Origin: Escherichia coli O157:H7 | GTDB taxonomy: Bacteria > Pseudomonadota > Gammaproteobacteria > Enterobacterales > Enterobacteriaceae | DNA length: 64,000 nt | Assembly: GCF_013167455.1 (NCBI RefSeq) | Contig: NZ_CP038328.1 | Strand: one strand, 5' to 3' | Shown here: one piece after another, positions 16,494-60,965 of the stretch | Layout of the letters: each line of letters starts with the position of its first letter | How positions within the stretch are numbered: the first letter of the stretch is position 1 | Notes under the pieces: generated by a model | The model's input: only the letters and a program-made list of their open reading frames with translations | Databases searched by the model: none | Told to the model about the DNA's origin: nothing | Translations under genes and position numbers: made by a program

Positions 16494-16702
16494 TATTCCT
16501 CCCGGCCGGGATAGTGTATTAAATCAGATATGGAGTGGGCTGTAGTCCGGAAGCCTGAATGACACACGGGGACTACAGCCCAAGAAATGAAAAAAGGCCA
16601 CGCAGTTGCGCAGCCTGATAAACCCTGGTTAAAATCCACACGATAACAACACAACAATATCAGTATCTCATGCTATTGCCCGAACCCATTCGGGCATTTT
16701 TT

Positions 16703-16735
16703 TACCCATAAAAAATGCCCCTCCGGAGAGGGGCA
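16703..16735 (-). terminator. intrinsic terminator downstream of TerB-like gene
   Basis: gcccctccggagaggggc stem with U-run on the minus strand. Confidence 0.5.
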
Positions 16736-17065
16736 TGTTTGCATGCACATTCTTTTTCTTGCATGGTGCCGGGTGCCTCCCGGTGAATTCAGTATCAGCA
16801 CCTGAATCCGCGATTATCCCATATACCTGGTTGCTGATCGCCCCTCCGCACAGGGGGATTCACCATGCAGAAGTGTTTTTAATAAACAGCAAACAAAAAA
16901 ATCAAGCATTATGCAGGCTGTTTCTTTTTATCACCGGCCACAGCAATACCACAATGCCGCAGACCAGCACCCCATCCGCCAGCACCGACATGATTCTGCT
17001 GGTGAAATCCACCATCACCACCAGAAACAGCAGGAGTGCAGCCACAGCCAGGCGCAGTTTTACCG

Positions 17066-17497
17066 TCACAGGTGATTCTCCAGACGAAGACCCAGAACAC
17101 CGGCAATCTCTTCCAGCACCTTGCGCTCTTCCGGCTCAATTTCGCCGTCTGCCTCCGCAATGGCCACCGCCACATCCAGCACATCTTCCGCTTCACGCGT
17201 ATCGTGTTTCACATCCTCAATCTCGCGTAACGCGGCACGACGACCAATTTTAAAATTGGTATCCAGCTGACCGATAATGGTTGCGCTAATCGCATTAATT
17301 TCCGAGGTAAACGCAGACAACGCAGGCTGATTACGTAAGACCTGTTCGATCTTCGCTTTCTCGGATGCCTCGCATTCACCATCTGCATAGGCCACCAGGT
17401 ATGCAGCGTTAATCACCGCCTGTGCCAGATCGCGTTTCTCAAACTTTTTAATTTCCGCTGCCGCTCTGCGGGTTTTCTTTTTGAAGATTCCAAACAT
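17066..17497 (-). CDS. TerB-like (tellurite-resistance TerB domain) protein
   Basis: Start MFGIFKKKTRRAAAEIKKFEKRDLAQAVINAAYLVAYADGECEASEKAKIEQ…, acidic C-terminal half; occupies the position between the tRNAs and nanS-like gene. Confidence 0.6.
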   Translation of the reverse strand: MFGIFKKKTRRAAAEIKKFEKRDLAQAVINAAYLVAYADGECEASEKAKIEQVLRNQPALSAFTSEINAISATIIGQLDTNFKIGRRAALREIEDVKHDTREAEDVLDVAVAIAEADGEIEPEERKVLEEIAGVLGLRLENHL

Positions 17498-17666
17498 CGT
17501 GACGTTCCTTTGGGTGGGTGAGCCAACGCCCGGGAGCGATCTGCCCACAGAGAAAGTCACACTGACCACTCCGTAAGCTCACCCCCGAAAGGCTCTGTGG
17601 TTGATATGCGCCGGGCGTGGCGCAGATACAAAAAAGGCCCGCCGAAGCGAGCCTGGAAAATAAGTG

Positions 17667-17743
17667 TGGCGCGTTGTAGTGGAGTCTAACCACTGACCGA
17701 TTGCTTAGAAGGCAATTGCTCTGTCCGACTGAGCTAACAACGC
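17667..17743 (-). tRNA. tRNA-Arg (anticodon UCU)
   Basis: Cloverleaf gcgttgt/acaacgc acceptor, anticodon loop cuUCUaa, unusual T-loop ttagact, CCA encoded. Confidence 0.75.
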
Positions 17744-17756
17744 ATGATGCTGATAA

Positions 17757-17833
17757 TGGACCGCCATCGGGGACTTGAACCCCGCGCAGCCAGCTTCGAA
17801 GGCTGGCGCTCTGTCCCGATGAGCTAATAGCGG
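17757..17833 (-). tRNA. tRNA-Arg (anticodon UCG)
   Basis: Cloverleaf with anticodon stem ccagc/gctgg, loop cuUCGaa, T-arm cgggg-ttcaagt-ccccg, CCA encoded. Confidence 0.7.
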
Positions 17834-17842
17834 TATGTAATA

Positions 17843-17918
17843 TGGTGGCCCTTGCTGGATTTGAACCAGCGACCTGGCGATTATGAGTCGCTCGCTCTCA
17901 CCACTGAGCTAAAGGGCC
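17843..17918 (-). tRNA. ileZ: tRNA-Ile2 (anticodon CAU, ileX/ileZ-like)
   Basis: ggccctttagctcagtggtgagagcgagcgactCATaatcgcc…; near-identical to E. coli tRNA-Ile2 (ileX) from memory; first of three tRNAs downstream of Q. Confidence 0.75.
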
Positions 17919-24671: not shown

Positions 24672-24892
24672 GCTGCACCTCCGAGATGCTTCATGTTTTT
24701 TCCGGAGCGAAAGGCTATAAGCGGCATACTGACGCGGTAATTACGGCCCAGCGGTTCACAAATCACCTTCTGACATTCACGGTCAACCAGGCTAACACGT
24801 AGAACATGCCCTGCAGGTGTGGTGTACCACTGACCCGGACGAGGACAACGGAAAGTCTGATTGGTAAACCGTTTGAAAATATTCCGGATCAT
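24668..24892 (-). CDS. hypothetical small protein
   Basis: 74-aa ORF translationally coupled (4-nt overlaps) to both neighbours. Confidence 0.4.
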   Translation of the reverse strand: MIRNIFKRFTNQTFRCPRPGQWYTTPAGHVLRVSLVDRECQKVICEPLGRNYRVSMPLIAFRSGKNMKHLGGAA

Positions 24893-26049
24893 TTGCGCCC
24901 CCTTACCTCTGAAGGGTTCAGCGACAAATTTATGAGGCAGGCCAGCGCCGAAGCATCATTAATATAATCATATAAGCTAACAGCCAGCGGAGATTCAGCT
25001 TTTGCCAACATAGGATAAAGCTGCTGCAGCCAGACCTTGTGGATTACCGACAGGTGGGAGTAAAGCACGCTGGCGTTATCTGCGGCATCGCTCAGCGTGG
25101 ATGGCTTTGAAAGCAGTTTTTCCATCTGGTTAAAGGCATTGATGTATGCCTCTTTGAACCGGGCAGCACGTTTACCCGTGAAACCCATAGCAAGAAACGC
25201 AAAACCGTCTCGTGTGATTTGATAGCAAGGGAGCTTGCGTGTACCACCGTTCGGTTGATTTACCGAAATCGATGTCTCCGCAAAATTGCGGGCACAAAAC
25301 TCAGGGGAACAATCCAGAGTGCGGATCTTTTTCAGCACATCGTCGTGACGCTTGGAGAAGAAGTTGGCAACAGCCAAAGAAGTGGTAACGGCCTGGCCGT
25401 TGTCAATGGTGATTTCAGGTTGAGTGAGGGCTTGGATCGTAGCCATGATGGCAGCCTCCGTTGACAGTGAAAAACTTCCACCACCGGAAACGCCAATTTC
25501 ACTGGTGGTGAACTGGACGGGGTTGGCGTAACCGGCGTCAACGGAGACCGGCGCACCTTTCGGTGCCCCCGCCCAGCCCACCATAATCTGGATGTGAGCA
25601 AATGCGGACGATAAAAAAGACGCTGGCGCGTCATACATCGCCGTTGACAATTTCAGGACGCCAATCCCGGCACCCGCTTTATAAGGTGCCTGAACAGTGT
25701 AACGTCCCGGAATTGCAGAATCAATATGCTGGTGGTCCTTCACACTCAACAAAATCACGCCTGAATTTCCACAAAGGACTAAAGCACTCATGCGGGTAGT
25801 CTTTGCGAAGATAGATAACGCGCTGTGTTTCTGGCTCCCAACGAATAACATGAACATAAAGTCCTCTTCCGTCACGAAACCAGCGGTTAAGTTCCTGCAC
25901 AACTCGCCCCCCACAGTCAGGTAAAGTTCTCTGTGGTTACTTACAGCCAGGTGATTTGGTAATCTGCATTCATGCCGTAACAACAAGTGTTCAGCGACGC
26001 TGACCACCAGCTGTTGCGACAAACGGTTATTTGCCGTTAAACTGTTCAT
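24889..26049 (-). CDS. Rha-family phage regulatory protein with unusual N-terminal extension
   Basis: 386-aa ORF; region MATIQALTQPEITIDNGQAVTTSLAVANFFSKRHDDVLKKIRTL…TRDGFAFLAMGFTGKRAARFKEAYINAFNQME is Rha-like; the first ~190 aa are unrecognised and may reflect a later true start. Confidence 0.5.
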   Translation of the reverse strand: MNSLTANNRLSQQLVVSVAEHLLLRHECRLPNHLAVSNHRELYLTVGGELCRNLTAGFVTEEDFMFMLFVGSQKHSALSIFAKTTRMSALVLCGNSGVILLSVKDHQHIDSAIPGRYTVQAPYKAGAGIGVLKLSTAMYDAPASFLSSAFAHIQIMVGWAGAPKGAPVSVDAGYANPVQFTTSEIGVSGGGSFSLSTEAAIMATIQALTQPEITIDNGQAVTTSLAVANFFSKRHDDVLKKIRTLDCSPEFCARNFAETSISVNQPNGGTRKLPCYQITRDGFAFLAMGFTGKRAARFKEAYINAFNQMEKLLSKPSTLSDAADNASVLYSHLSVIHKVWLQQLYPMLAKAESPLAVSLYDYINDASALACLINLSLNPSEVRGRK

Positions 26050-26630
26050 GCGTTAGTTTCTCCACAACCAGAAGCAATCGACGCCACGACGCCCGGAGCT
26101 GCACACTCGCGGGCGTTACTCTTTTCCGGTGCACAAAAAACACGAAATAACAGTGTTAAATGCTCCTGCCACTTCGCCATTACTTGGTAGCTGTTCTCTT
26201 CGATTTGCTCACGCTCAGCCTGGTCAATAACTCCATCAGCAGTTGCCTTGCGTAAGTACTGGGAATGCTTGCCAATCCATTCTATTGACTCCATCAGCCG
26301 CTGATTAATGTCACCATTGTCAATGTCATCAATGACCACCAGCGGCACAAACACCCCATAACTACGACGGGCTATTGCATCTGTTACATGCCTGGTACCA
26401 CTGGCATCCTGTAAAACCATGGCCCACTCAAGTGGAAAAATTTGATCCCCACCGCTACGCAGTCTGTTATGCAATTGATCTTTTGCTGGGGTGATATCAT
26501 CAGATTTATACAAACCAAGAATTTCTGCTGCTTCCTCATAGCCATGAGGTAAATCAGCAATCGTTCTTCGTATTGCTGCCACCAGCCATGCTGGTTGTTT
26601 ATCAACTTTCCATTCAGGTTCTTTACCCAC
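26046..26630 (-). CDS. early-right operon protein (CII position; possibly YdaT-like)
   Basis: 194-aa ORF immediately downstream of cro; no firm motif. Confidence 0.35.
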   Translation of the reverse strand: MGKEPEWKVDKQPAWLVAAIRRTIADLPHGYEEAAEILGLYKSDDITPAKDQLHNRLRSGGDQIFPLEWAMVLQDASGTRHVTDAIARRSYGVFVPLVVIDDIDNGDINQRLMESIEWIGKHSQYLRKATADGVIDQAEREQIEENSYQVMAKWQEHLTLLFRVFCAPEKSNARECAAPGVVASIASGCGETNA

Positions 26631-26657: not shown

Positions 26658-26855
26658 TTATGCCGCAGCACTGTTAGTCTTTTGATATAAAGACACGTCA
26701 ACTTTCAGTTTCCCGTTAGTAATTTTTTCTAACTGGTACGCTCGGCCTTCAGGAATAATCTCAGGCCACTCTGAAACAGACGGATGCTTAATACCTAGGG
26801 CTTCGGCGGTTTTACAAACTCCGCCGAAATAATTAATCACGTCGGATTTCCGCAT
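26658..26855 (-). CDS. cro: Cro-like repressor
   Basis: 65 aa, divergent from the cI-like gene across an operator-containing 95-bp region. Confidence 0.7.
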   Translation of the reverse strand: MRKSDVINYFGGVCKTAEALGIKHPSVSEWPEIIPEGRAYQLEKITNGKLKVDVSLYQKTNSAAA

Positions 26856-26950: not shown

Positions 26951-27604
26951 ATGATGAACATGAGTGATCGTATTCGCCAAAGGCGAAAAGAACTGAACCT
27001 GACACAACAAGCACTGGCTGATTTGACTGGTGTGAACCGTGTCACGGTTACTGGATGGGAAAAGGACGACTACCAACCAAATGGAGCCAACCTTCAAGCC
27101 CTAGCCAACGCACTTAAATGCGATCCTCTGTGGCTTGTTAGCGGAAAAGGCTCGCCTGAACCAAAGATAAATCTAAAACCTGAAATATTCGCAGTTAAAA
27201 AAGTCCCCCTCATCTCGTGGGTTCAGGCGGGTTCATGGACAATGACGGAGCCTGGTGTCAGGAAAGAAGATGCTGAAGAGTGGGTTTATACTACCGCCCT
27301 TGTATCAGAAATGGCATTTGCACTACGGGTCCGTGGTGATTCAATGACCAATCCCCTCGGCTCACCATCGATACCAGAAGGTTCTATCGTTATCGTAGAG
27401 CCAGATATTATTGATACAGAGTGTATTAACGGAAAAATCGTTGTTGCCCATATCAATGGTGGGCAAGAAGCGACACTCAAAAAATTTGTTGAGGACTGGC
27501 CGAACAGGTATCTCGTCCCACTAAATCCTAACTATAAAACTATTGAATGCGGTGAGAACTGCAGAATAGTTGGTCTTGTCAAACAAGTAATAATGGATTT
27601 TTGA
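26951..27604 (+). CDS. cI: CI-type repressor (HTH_XRE plus S24 LexA-like peptidase domain)
   Basis: 217 aa; N-terminal HTH (IRQRRKELNLTQQALADLTGVNRVTVTGWE), Ala-Gly cleavage site (VQAGSW), catalytic Ser (VRGDSM) and Lys (ATLKKF). Confidence 0.85.
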   Translation: MMNMSDRIRQRRKELNLTQQALADLTGVNRVTVTGWEKDDYQPNGANLQALANALKCDPLWLVSGKGSPEPKINLKPEIFAVKKVPLISWVQAGSWTMTEPGVRKEDAEEWVYTTALVSEMAFALRVRGDSMTNPLGSPSIPEGSIVIVEPDIIDTECINGKIVVAHINGGQEATLKKFVEDWPNRYLVPLNPNYKTIECGENCRIVGLVKQVIMDF

Positions 27605-27624
27605 CACATCTTCCTCACTATCGC

Positions 27625-27650
27625 AAAACCGGGGTATCCCCGGTTTTTTT
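27625..27650 (+). terminator. intrinsic terminator after cI
   Basis: aaaaccggggtatccccggttttttt. Confidence 0.7.
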
Positions 27651-27659
27651 ATGAGCCTA

Positions 27660-27720
27660 TCTTTTTATGTAGGATAACCAACATAAACTCTTGACACTCA
27701 CATGTTGGATATCCTACATT
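27660..27720 (+). promoter_or_regulatory. OL/pL-like operator-promoter
   Basis: Operator copies atgtaggataaccaacat and catgttggatatcctacat flanking TTGACA (27691-27696) with a -10-like tacatt 18 nt downstream. Confidence 0.5.
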
Positions 27721-28061
27721 TGTTTTTAGAGTTGTGGTGAATGCGCAGGCTGATGCGCGAAAGACATTGCAGCTATTGCGGAAAAGAGCTGTTCGGCGGG
27801 GCAATTAAACGCCCGTGAGAGTCTGAAATAACCGCAAGCCGGAGATCAGCACCGGTCACCACAACAGCCACTGCTTTGGCGGTACCAGTTTGTACACTTG
27901 CTTCCGGCTGGTACCGCTCTTTTTACAAAACAGAGAAGAGCATCACCGGACGACGGGCTCATAACCCAATCCATCCGGGCGGCTGCCACCGCAGGTGTTC
28001 TTCTCTGTTTTGTGGAGAAACCAACCGACCTTGCAGGGTCGATATGATGAGGAGCAACAAA

Positions 28062-28424
28062 ATGGCTAGCGAACGCAGTACTGATGTGCAGGCATTTATC
28101 GGGGAGCTGGACGGCGGCGTATTTGAAACAAAAATCGGCGCAGTTCTCAGTGAAGTCGCTTCCGGTGTGATGAACACGAAAACCAAAGGTAAGGTCTCGC
28201 TCAACCTGGAAATCGAACCGTTTGATGAGAACCGTGTGAAAATCAAACACAAACTCTCATATGTTCGCCCGACTAACCGCGGGAAAATTTCCGAAGAAGA
28301 CACCACCGAAACGCCGATGTATGTCAATCGCGGTGGTCGCCTGACTATTCTGCAGGAAGACCAGGGACAATTACTGACTCTTGCCGGTGAACCTGACGGA
28401 AAACTACGCGCAGCAGGTCATTAA
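28062..28424 (+). CDS. hypothetical early-left protein
   Basis: ATG 28062 preceded by AGGAG; 120 aa MASERSTDVQAFIGELDGGVFETKIGAVLSEVASGVMNTK…. Confidence 0.5.
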   Translation: MASERSTDVQAFIGELDGGVFETKIGAVLSEVASGVMNTKTKGKVSLNLEIEPFDENRVKIKHKLSYVRPTNRGKISEEDTTETPMYVNRGGRLTILQEDQGQLLTLAGEPDGKLRAAGH

Positions 28425-51151: not shown

Positions 51152-51285
51152 CTGTGAAATGCCGGATGCGGCGTGAACGCCTTGTCCGGCCTACAAAACC
51201 GAAACGTATGTAGGCCTGATAAGACGCGTCAGCGTCGCATCAGGCAGTTGTTGTCGGATAAGGCATGAAAGCCTTATCCGTCCTG
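51152..51285. repeat. REP/BIME cluster between malE and malF
   Basis: Several gccggatg…ccggcctaca / gtaggcctgataagacgcg…cgcatcaggc units. Confidence 0.85.
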
Positions 51286-60472: not shown

Positions 60473-60855
60473 AACAATTTCCCTTCATTGAATGAATGGA
60501 GATTTACCCAAAAACATTTCGGGCGGGATCGAGTATACACAACTAAAGCATGCGAATTACGGCGCGGGGAATTAGAGATGGGGTTTTAGGATAATTGGAA
60601 TGAATATCAAATATAAGCTACAACCTATATATAAATAACATTAAAAATCATAGTGTTAAAATAAAAGTAAAAGTAATTAATCTGAGTATTTTCCGAAATC
60701 AATCACGATTAAAAATCTATTTTAGGATTAACCTCACGGTATGATTTCCGTTAAATCACAGACAAGGGGATTTATCTGATAAAACAATGCCGACTTATAG
60801 TCGGCATTGTTTTTAAGGTTATTTAATTAATCGTGCTATGCATTAATTGCCGAAT

Positions 60856-60965
<110 letters not shown>

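Follow-up and report, generated by a model that had tools for sequence, protein, structure and literature searches.

A leader of three non-coding RNA modules at the head of the early-left operon in a lambdoid prophage of Escherichia coli O157:H7

In phage lambda, an RNase III processing hairpin lies between boxA and N, while tRNA-like or RNase P-processed RNAs are represented by mascRNA of MALAT1 and the C4 RNA precursor of P1/P7, from which C4 RNA is released by RNase P. The put element of HK022 consists of two adjacent stem-loops of ~70 nt (PMC9378689). In the dicBF operon of the Qin prophage the dicF terminator is only partial and both terminated and read-through dicBF transcripts are formed, and DicF occurs as a 190-nt RNase III-dependent and a 53-nt RNase E-dependent form (PMC10448788, PMC5069750). 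The theta ribozymes, which resemble the hepatitis delta virus (HDV) ribozyme, trim tRNA 3' trailers and are placed by phages beside tRNAs (PMC10879173). Here, the leader of the early-left operon of a lambdoid prophage in E. coli O157:H7 was compared with these systems. It lies in a stretch of 64,000 nt (contig NZ_CP038328.1, assembly GCF_013167455.1), called the window, and forms ~335 nt of highly structured non-coding RNA from the promoter pL to the start of the first gene, yfdP (28062). The leader is a cassette of three separately inherited conserved non-coding RNA modules, M1, M2 and M3. By sequence comparison, it is arranged like the part of the dicBF operon of Qin that holds dicF. An explanation in which partial termination yields an RNA of M1 and M2, and the read-through transcript is processed at M3 without N or put, has in our judgement about an even chance of being correct.

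Modular organization of the leader

A 471-nt query (window 27600-28070) was compared by blastn with phage and E. coli collections. The homology blocks break at 27728, 27857 and 27877, and these fixed points divide the leader into the three modules and a short tail. The original prediction had described the leader as structured, and folding agreed with this. The minimum free energy (MFE) is -136.8 against -111.6 +/- 5.5 for 100 shuffles of the leader (z = -4.56), and each helix is preserved through compensatory changes among relatives. Rfam was searched at E <= 10 with the leader and four related loci and at gathering thresholds with the whole window. These searches found no family for any of the three modules, and the single match in the leader is an 18-nt partial resemblance of the P4 hairpin of M1 to rydB (E = 2.8).

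Two mini open reading frames (ORFs) are found in the leader. The one starting with GTG had been reported earlier with 23 codons; it is present and has 24. The other starts with ATG and has 25 codons. Neither of them matches any family of PHROGs. The GTG ORF falls in an invariant block of M1 and is not coding, since a compensatory stem change puts an in-frame stop (GCGUAG) into it in the family and the insert lengths are not multiples of three. A truncated N was also considered for this frame, as MVNAQADARKTLQLLRKRAVRRGN looks arginine-rich, and was rejected because the stem changes and insert lengths break the frame.

M2 is the module that recalls DicF. The terminator-like hairpin noticed earlier, with the arms ggtaccag (27881-27888) and ctggtacc (27908-27915) followed by gctcttttt (27916-27924), was confirmed, and its full stem counts 13 bp (27878-27918) with a free energy of -20.7 kcal/mol. 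It has the pattern of an intrinsic terminator, a G+C-rich hairpin followed by a U-run, so that termination is predicted here, and the hairpin is preserved by compensatory variants in relatives. A simple terminator scan missed it because of its unusually large loop of ~15 nt. The first 17 nt of M2 agree with dicF at 16 of 17 positions. Position is the stronger argument for kinship with DicF, as far as sequence comparison goes. Phage cdtI has M2-M3-yfdP in common with the window at 99% identity, and in cdtI the 123 nt directly 5' of M2 match those directly 5' of dicF in Qin at 89% identity (E = 2e-44); this Qin pre-dicF element is followed in cdtI by TTTGGCGGTA[C/T]CAGTTT. Loci of the Qin type carry several DicF variants with the same plan of UUUGGCGG, hairpin and U5, each followed by an M1-like element, M1', which is also present in SfV (25.5 bits by the M1 covariance model). 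M1 is followed by a UUUGGCGG hairpin in 13 of 86 contexts. The equivalent of M2 in BUCT554 scores 22.3 bits with the DicF model of Rfam, the gathering score being 48.

M2 has several features in common with DicF and the dicBF operon of Qin (RF00039). Both belong to lambdoid-prophage early operons under repressor control, both show UUUGGCGG at the base of a long hairpin with U5 after it, and both are directly preceded by a ~135-nt structured element closed by GUUGUGG/CCACAAC-type sequences. The operon runs past the terminator into protein genes in both cases, the precursor length is similar (190 nt in Qin and ~198 nt from the predicted +1 to the U-run of M2 in the window), and an M1-like element is found in the same Qin locus. 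Unlike DicF, M2 has a different loop and putative seed sequence, fails the RF00039 model and has no complementarity to ftsZ. It is placed at the start of the operon whereas dicF comes after three small ORFs, and the gene after it is yfdP, not dicB.

M3 is composed of a long closing stem and two inner arms, and it is a homologue of the X module found in other phages, whose copies have the same interior and are directly followed by M1. A 14-bp stem had been proposed in this region. Its 3' arm at 28000-28013 was correct, while the 5' arm, acaaaacagagaag, is situated at 27925-27938 instead of 27926-27939 and the pairing is part of a longer helix. RNAalifold on 9 variants showed double-sided changes in 8 pairs of the stem. 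As a near-continuous duplex of at least ~20 bp, the stem is shaped like a substrate of RNase III and may be cleaved as such. Arm 1 holds CGGGCUCAUAACCC, which we take to be the anticodon stem-loop of E. coli initiator tRNA with its three G-C pairs. The same 13-mer is present in a genuine tRNA-Met of the C1xA72 type (locus L290), and Klebsiella phage GZ7 carries the inner arm in its late leader, just 3' of tRNA-Arg. The loop variants CCCAUAA and CUCAUUA show that the loop of M3 is free of strict tRNA constraints. Just downstream of M3, the Shine-Dalgarno sequence (SD) of yfdP is unpaired in the MFE structure. M3 resembles the N-leader hairpin of lambda in being long, near-perfect and directly 5' of the ribosome-binding site of the first early-left gene, and in one other locus (L291, described below) it is M1 that stands after boxA and before an N-like gene. 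M3 and the lambda hairpin have no sequence similarity, and M3 differs in its conserved interior of two hairpins, which includes an anticodon arm like that of initiator tRNA.

M1 as a conserved RNA family

Members of the M1 family were collected by three pattern scans of IMG/VR, which gave at least 83 distinct cores. In the cores, 6-170 nt of insert separate two invariant blocks, GUGGUGAAUGCGCAGGCUGAUGCGC on the 5' side and AAGCCGGAGAUCAGCRCCGGCCACCAC on the 3' side. The covariance model scores the window copy at 80.7 bits and finds 97 copies in 100 sources, with two copies in some loci. Both P1 and P2 covary: one pair of P1 is GC in 63, UA in 12, AU in 5 and CG in 1, and one pair of P2 is CG in 66, UA in 11 and UG in 4. 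In a 28-sequence alignment, 93.9% of cells are paired, compared with 27-52% when the partners are slid, and the covariation score was reached by none of 500 shuffles. The whole P2 stem is swapped among members (GACGG/CCGUC, GUGUA/UACAU, GUGCG/CGCAC) with the loop GGCUGA fixed. The GCUGA of this loop is complementary to UCAGC (or UCAGU) of the P4 loop in all variants (95.7% of cells), which makes a loop-loop pairing of P2 and P4 plausible.

The modelled geometry of M1 is tRNA-like. The 7-bp P1 runs into the 5-bp P4 hairpin without a linker, P2 takes the position of the D-arm after a 3-nt linker, and the insert occupies that of the anticodon arm. As modelled, M1 would share with mascRNA and C4-type elements the coaxial stack of 7 bp and 5 bp with a terminal loop and a second arm whose loop could pair with this terminal loop; the location flush against genuine tRNAs and the variable insert at the anticodon-arm position are further likenesses. 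Unlike tRNA-like elements, it has neither the canonical D and T loop sequences nor CCA and is missed by tRNA finders. Like theta ribozymes (PMC10879173), M1 is a conserved structured RNA abutting tRNA genes in Caudoviricetes, while its fold differs and its hosts are Proteobacteria, those of theta ribozymes being Bacteroidota and Bacillota.

Other identities were considered for M1 and rejected. For a hammerhead (CUGAUG...GAAA), the GAAAGAC is not conserved in relatives; for an HDV-like or theta fold, the 5' and 3' ends pair together, which by inspection is incompatible with the nested double pseudoknot of HDV, whose J4/2 contains the catalytic C. The order of the GTTRRRY/RYYYAAC motifs is wrong for an integron attC. 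The tRNA-like domain of a phage tmRNA (transfer-messenger RNA) seems doubtful, as M1 has no G3:U70 and no conserved CCA. No ribozyme family of Rfam matched at E <= 10. Extra copies of M1 or M2 in the window were also rejected: the two near-matches, at 17371 in the TerB coding sequence and at 63183 in that of lysC, are due to chance. The M1 core gave no match in the literature searched by sequence, and a keyword search of the literature returned nothing relevant. Judged by its sequence, M1 is an abundant, covariation-supported RNA family missing from Rfam, and the novel part of the leader. The known small RNA RydB of K-12 (L132, 714-781, - strand) carries GCCGGAGAUAAGCGCCGG, which is almost identical to the P4 hairpin of M1, and an upstream CUUAUC could pair with the loop; RydB may be a degenerate relative of M1, or the likeness may be a coincidence.

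The 136-nt M1 block stands alone in unrelated phages by blastn. It was found in the T1-like phage IME207, an Ackermannviridae Klebsiella phage, Uetakevirus, the lambdoid phage HK633 and a P1-like plasmid. A tRNA lies within 1 kb of 25 of 96 M1 copies, always on the same strand (25/25). It starts 4-9 nt 3' of M1 in 7 copies, and at several loci a tRNA-like 3' end (T-arm and acceptor-like strand, uncalled by ARAGORN) is found 2-3 nt before M1. Most M1 copies have the X module directly 5'. It consists of ACAACAGGUAAGAGCAUU, a variable cargo of 45-70 nt and AGUGCUCUUUCC, and the cargo often resembles a T-arm or the anticodon arm of initiator tRNA. On the P1-like plasmid (L378, 1265-3121) the order is tRNA-Asn, tRNA-Thr, X, M1, X, an M1-like element, TerB, DUF3927 and tRNA-Ile. 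M1 is also found in early operons. A promoter identical to pL of the window precedes it in many IMG/VR prophages, and in other phages it stands directly 5' of an SD and a cro-like gene. The copy in HK633 is located downstream of pR'/qut. Locus L291 (IMG/VR 2903556799_000003, ~3790-4300) has an HK022-like OL/pL with boxA (CGCUCUUUAACAA) in the place of putL, followed by M1 and an 84-aa N-like ORF (phrog_271, E = 7e-5). This locus is a natural hybrid with M1 within an N-dependent leader. In the IMG/VR prophage L080, which has the same cI and pL, M1 is interrupted after CGCCCGU, from +70 to +640 of the M1 start, by ~560 nt with two small opposed ORFs, and a complete M1'-type element and M2-M3-yfdP follow. 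The same interrupted M1 is present in vB_EcoM-720R4 and SKA5, where the blastn match is split into two pieces.

Some further observations were made around X-M1 units and tRNAs. In the window itself, a cluster of tRNA(CAT), tRNA-Arg and tRNA-Arg followed by TerB and DUF3927 is present at 17000-17918 (- strand), and X-M1 units are absent from this late region; the tRNA-TerB-DUF3927 cassette recurs in the P1-like plasmid together with X-M1 units. In HK633 (L130, 988-1020) a frame resembling a tmRNA tag, GCAAACGAAGAAAUGUAUCUGGCCGUAGCUUAA (ANEEMYLAVA-stop), is situated ~200 nt 5' of X-M1, and Klebsiella phage T765 (L129, 1012-1044) has an ANDNTFLAVA-stop frame at about the same distance. The differences between the two frames are consistent with coding constraint. 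Their matches to tmRNA models of Rfam are weak (tmRNA_permuted, E = 0.41, ending at the stop codon), and ARAGORN called none. From their sequence, these frames may belong to a phage tmRNA-like RNA of unusual architecture. At L285 (3303-3398) ARAGORN reported a 'tmRNA' over an X-M1 unit with the implausible tag AKAVRLRKCSFRCGECAG and a stop. The call probably results from the T-arm-like cargo of X in combination with M1, and it shows that X-M1 modules can confuse tRNA and tmRNA finders.

Possible termination, antitermination and processing of the early-left transcript

The absence of a recognisable N gene, proposed in the original prediction, was supported by PHROGs, by tblastn and by the Prokaryotic Genome Annotation Pipeline (PGAP), none of which returned an N. 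PHROGs, applied to the leader ORFs and yfdP, found no N-family protein as first gene of pL. In tblastn of lambda N, P22 gp24, 933W N and Nun against the whole window the best E was 0.2, a weak test because the four query sequences were approximate. In a prophage 99.8% identical over the 471-nt query, a Q-family antiterminator is the only one listed by PGAP. As for a nut site, the boxA-like CGCUCUUUUUACAA in the tail of M2 is not conserved, and a boxB-type hairpin was not searched for. This candidate boxA (27916-27929, descending arm and tail of M2), though near the consensus CGCUCUUUAACAA, was rejected on finding that sister leaders read CGUCCUUUUUACAA, and the resemblance is probably fortuitous.

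The leader had also been likened to put elements. RNAs of this HK022 type suppress termination in cis by binding the zinc-binding domain of the beta' subunit of RNA polymerase, and they come as one copy just 3' of pL and another 3' of pR and cro. A put covariance model was built from 7 RNAs including HK022 putL, HK022 putR and HK639 putL, the other homologues being collected from CobraSix, S9-5, phiEt88 and UPF_BP1. It recovers the controls at 95.5, 91.2 and 46.5 bits, while the window gave at most 7 bits anywhere and the leader at best 4.0 bits, for a 21-nt hairpin with filters off. The likeness to put therefore did not hold, and the leader is not a put element. It does have in common with HK022 and HK639 a cis-encoded structured RNA directly 3' of pL in a phage without N. 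In M1, unlike the two stem-loops of put, several helices meet in a junction that is closed by pairing of the two ends, and M1 occurs also with an N-like gene and in lytic phages. No second copy of M1 or put was found on the pR side, where the gap between cro and the next gene is exactly 27 nt by ORF coordinates, both on the - strand, as had been said before. Since in L291 boxA precedes M1 and an N-like gene follows it, M1 is no stand-in for N. The attenuator named as another option is reasonable in a weak sense: a conserved structure of the intrinsic-terminator type is present in the operon, and no regulated alternative structure was seen.

The explanation given an even chance above would work as follows. 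Transcription would start 2-3 nt before M1, which would fold into a compact tRNA-shaped RNA, and the DicF-family RNA M2 would follow 12 nt further on, its hairpin and U-run acting as intrinsic terminator. Most polymerases would stop at M2 and leave an M1+M2 RNA of ~198 nt, the counterpart of the 190-nt DicF precursor, which host RNases (RNase III, RNase E and RNase P are the candidates) would cut into smaller stable species. Some polymerases would pass M2 without a dedicated factor, as at dicF, and continue across the RNase III-type stem of M3 to the exposed ribosome-binding site of yfdP. Apart from M2, no strong terminator was found on the + strand of the early-left operon, nor was one found between cro and the Q region. 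With M2 as the only strong terminator of the operon, and with cro lying close against the next gene, the phage would need neither N nor put, and Q would serve the late genes. The tight fold of the leader, which is not translated, should in addition hinder the loading of Rho. M1 and M3 would be generic scaffold or punctuation modules of phages, with conserved closing stems and exchangeable inserts.

A number of observations weigh against this explanation. Terminator-like sites occur within 200 nt 3' of M1 in 33 of 80 cases, compared with 14 of 80 upstream and 56 of 300 in the background, and in the window 2-3 nt separate the predicted +1 from the start of M1; both are also expected of an RNA that modifies polymerase. 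The sequence of the M1 core is very highly conserved, as if it had a specific partner, and the explanation names none. M1 is not recognised as tRNA by ARAGORN or Rfam, the only tRNAs called by ARAGORN in the window being three at 17667-17918, and it has no conserved CCA, which is in register in only 4 of 83 cores. The loop-loop pairing is without covariation as both loops are invariant. The DicF model (RF00039) gave no match at E <= 10 in 27720-28065. In RNAduplex, M2 showed no particular complementarity to the ribosome-binding site of ftsZ (-24.7 kcal/mol, z = +1.04), while the DicF control reached -37.6 kcal/mol (z = -2.05). An ftsZ-directed DicF orthologue is excluded by this result, and together with the failure of the DicF model it marks M2 as a DicF-family paralogue and not DicF. 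Moreover, CPS-53 of K-12 has lost the leader and kept only the last ~25 nt 5' of yfdP, so that data from the model strain do not apply, and K-12 was rejected as experimental proxy for the same reason.

The main rival is an M1 which modifies RNA polymerase. As a cis-acting processive antiterminator, unrelated to put and put-like in action, M1 would fold on emerging from the polymerase, stay bound to it and allow read-through of M2 and Rho sites. Its start 2-3 nt after the predicted +1 is like that of putL in HK022 (PMC9378689), and its position directly 5' of an SD and cro-like gene in other phages, the enrichment of terminator-like sites 3' of it and the lack of N in the phage agree with such a role, as does the near-invariant core across diverse phages, since an RNA that binds a conserved host machine should vary little. 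It is nevertheless clearly unlikely in our estimate, since M1 fails the put model and has another architecture, accompanies boxA and an N-like gene in L291, and is placed 3' of pR'/qut in HK633, where Q already acts. In Qin the M1-like element comes after the dicF terminator and not before it, leaders of the cdtI type retain M2-M3-yfdP with an unrelated M1 interior, and many M1 copies lie within tRNA arrays of lytic phages. M1 could also belong to a new class of self-cleaving ribozymes, or be strictly a substrate of RNase P, its sole role being to have the transcript cut at the 5' edge of M1. It would then be the proteobacterial-phage counterpart of the HDV-like theta ribozymes. The 2-3 nt between tRNA-like 3' ends and M1 at several loci, the 7 loci with a tRNA 4-9 nt after M1 and the precedent of self-cleavers beside phage tRNAs (PMC10879173) would fit this, and invariant loops and junction with covarying stems are what a core that is catalytic or tightly folded usually shows. 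The absence of a ribozyme match in Rfam at E <= 10, a topology which by inspection is not the HDV double pseudoknot and the lack of conservation of the hammerhead-like CUGAUG...GAAA in relatives make it very unlikely, and its RNase P version is already contained in the explanation we prefer.

The modules might also be mosaic baggage, with stems such as GUUGUGG/CCACAAC and ACAACAGG.../...CCGUUGU serving as recombination linkers and the leader having no role beyond spacing and tolerating transcription. Homology breakpoints do coincide with stem sequences, the interiors are freely swapped (M1, M1', Qin-type), one lineage bears ~560 nt with two small ORFs inside M1, and the K-12 prophage CPS-53 dispenses with the whole leader. 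The compensatory changes which keep P1, P2 and the M3 stem point beyond DNA identity to selection on RNA or single-strand structure; with the co-orientation of M1 and neighbouring tRNAs (25/25) and the maintenance of the family in both lytic and temperate phages, they render baggage an unlikely account. A regulated attenuator or riboswitch, in which a ligand, a protein or an uncharged tRNA toggles formation of the M2 terminator, would suit a long, highly structured leader with a terminator, and the initiator-tRNA-like arm of M3 and the tRNA-shaped M1 hint at contacts with the translation machinery. Yet MFE and centroid folds hold no competing antiterminator helix over the M2 stem, M1 and M2 are found independently of each other, Rfam gives no riboswitch match, and M3, coming after the terminator, cannot influence termination. 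Such regulation is highly improbable here.

Returning to partial termination at M2 with processing at M3, this reading would explain early-left expression without N or put in the phage group of SfV, mEp460, cdtI and the Stx2c- and Stx2a-converting phages. It predicts a DicF-like small RNA as the first product after derepression, which would be relevant to induction of Shiga-toxin prophages and to prophage-host cross-talk. A separate and tentative proposal, with somewhat less than an even chance, is that M1 represents an undescribed class of structured RNA. It could be a natural scaffold shaped like a tRNA, a ribozyme of a new kind, or an RNA bound by a core host machine such as RNase P, RNA polymerase or the ribosome. 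M1 is usually paired with the upstream stem module X and its tRNA-fragment-like cargo, and the prophage of the window also has a C4 RNA. If the proposal is true, phages of Proteobacteria would use M1 to process, stabilise or present small RNAs, placing it in tRNA arrays and at the heads of early operons, and in this prophage it would be the earliest RNA transcribed from pL. The location beside tRNAs and the conserved stem with exchangeable cargo suggest a general device of phages for RNA processing or display. M1 and its partner X are brought to light as an abundant, strongly conserved RNA family outside Rfam.

Prophage setting and feature coordinates

The window carries a lambdoid prophage, and by sequence its early-left operon is of the type found in CPS-53, SfV, mEp460, cdtI and Stx2c-phage (Table 1). 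The strong terminator after cI isolates the cI transcript from the pL unit, and SfV is annotated with a rho-independent terminator at the equivalent site. The +1 of pL is predicted at 27728/27729 from spacing alone. A promoter scan placed a mirror-image promoter on the - strand in front of cro. The genes after yfdP are yfdQ, yfdR and others.

Table 1. Positions of the leader modules and of the surrounding prophage features in the window
Feature	Position	Strand	Remarks
CII-like gene, 186-type	26046-26630	-	next to cro
cro	26658-26855	-	
cI	26951-27604	+	
Intrinsic terminator after cI	27626-27650	+	strong; aaaccggggtatccccggttttttt read directly in sequence
OL/pL region	27667-27720	+	promoter and two operator-like palindromes
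Operator-like palindromes flanking pL	27667-27684 and 27702-27719		
Sigma-70 promoter	27691-27720	+	TTGACA-N18-TACATT; promoter scan
M1, predicted tRNA-shaped junction RNA	27731-27865	+	blastn modularity, covariation, covariance model
M1 P1	27731-27739 with 27857-27865	+	inner 7 bp solid
M1 P2	27743-27747 with 27754-27758	+	loop GGCUGA 27748-27753
M1 variable insert	27759-27837	+	
M1 P4	27838-27842 with 27852-27856	+	loop AGAUCAGCA 27843-27851
M2	27875-27924	+	UUUGGCGG 27875-27882, hairpin 27878-27918, C-UUUUU 27919-27924
M3, X-module homologue	27925-28013	+	fold, RNAalifold
M3 closing stem	27925-27947 with 27994-28013	+	~23-25 bp
M3 arm 1	27946-27977	+	holds CGGGCUCAUAACCC at 27954-27967
M3 arm 2	27979-27992	+	
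Tail after M3	28014-28061	+	conserved GGAGAAACCAAC, hairpin 28025-28042, SD GAGGAG 28049-28054
yfdP	28062-28424	+	first early-left gene; phrog_204, function unknown; PGAP name YfdP; not N-like

On the pR side, Rfam matches at gathering level were obtained for C4 antisense RNA (25501-25588, - strand) and isrK (25613-25689, - strand). Both sit within a 386-aa ORF (24889-26049), whose N-terminal part is therefore probably non-coding, and an isrK/C4-antirepressor (immI-like) module seems to be part of the pR operon. The anti-GcvB small RNA AgvB (16641-16702, + strand) and STnc100 (16704-16897, - strand) were found downstream of the tRNA cluster of the prophage and of its TerB and DUF3927 genes. 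The remaining elements are naRNA4/REP-type (repetitive extragenic palindromic) sequences at 51213-51283 and 60884-60955, STnc430 at 60669-60818, and a lysine riboswitch at 62871-63067 (+ strand), 5' of lysC (63160 onward) in the host DNA at the end of the window.

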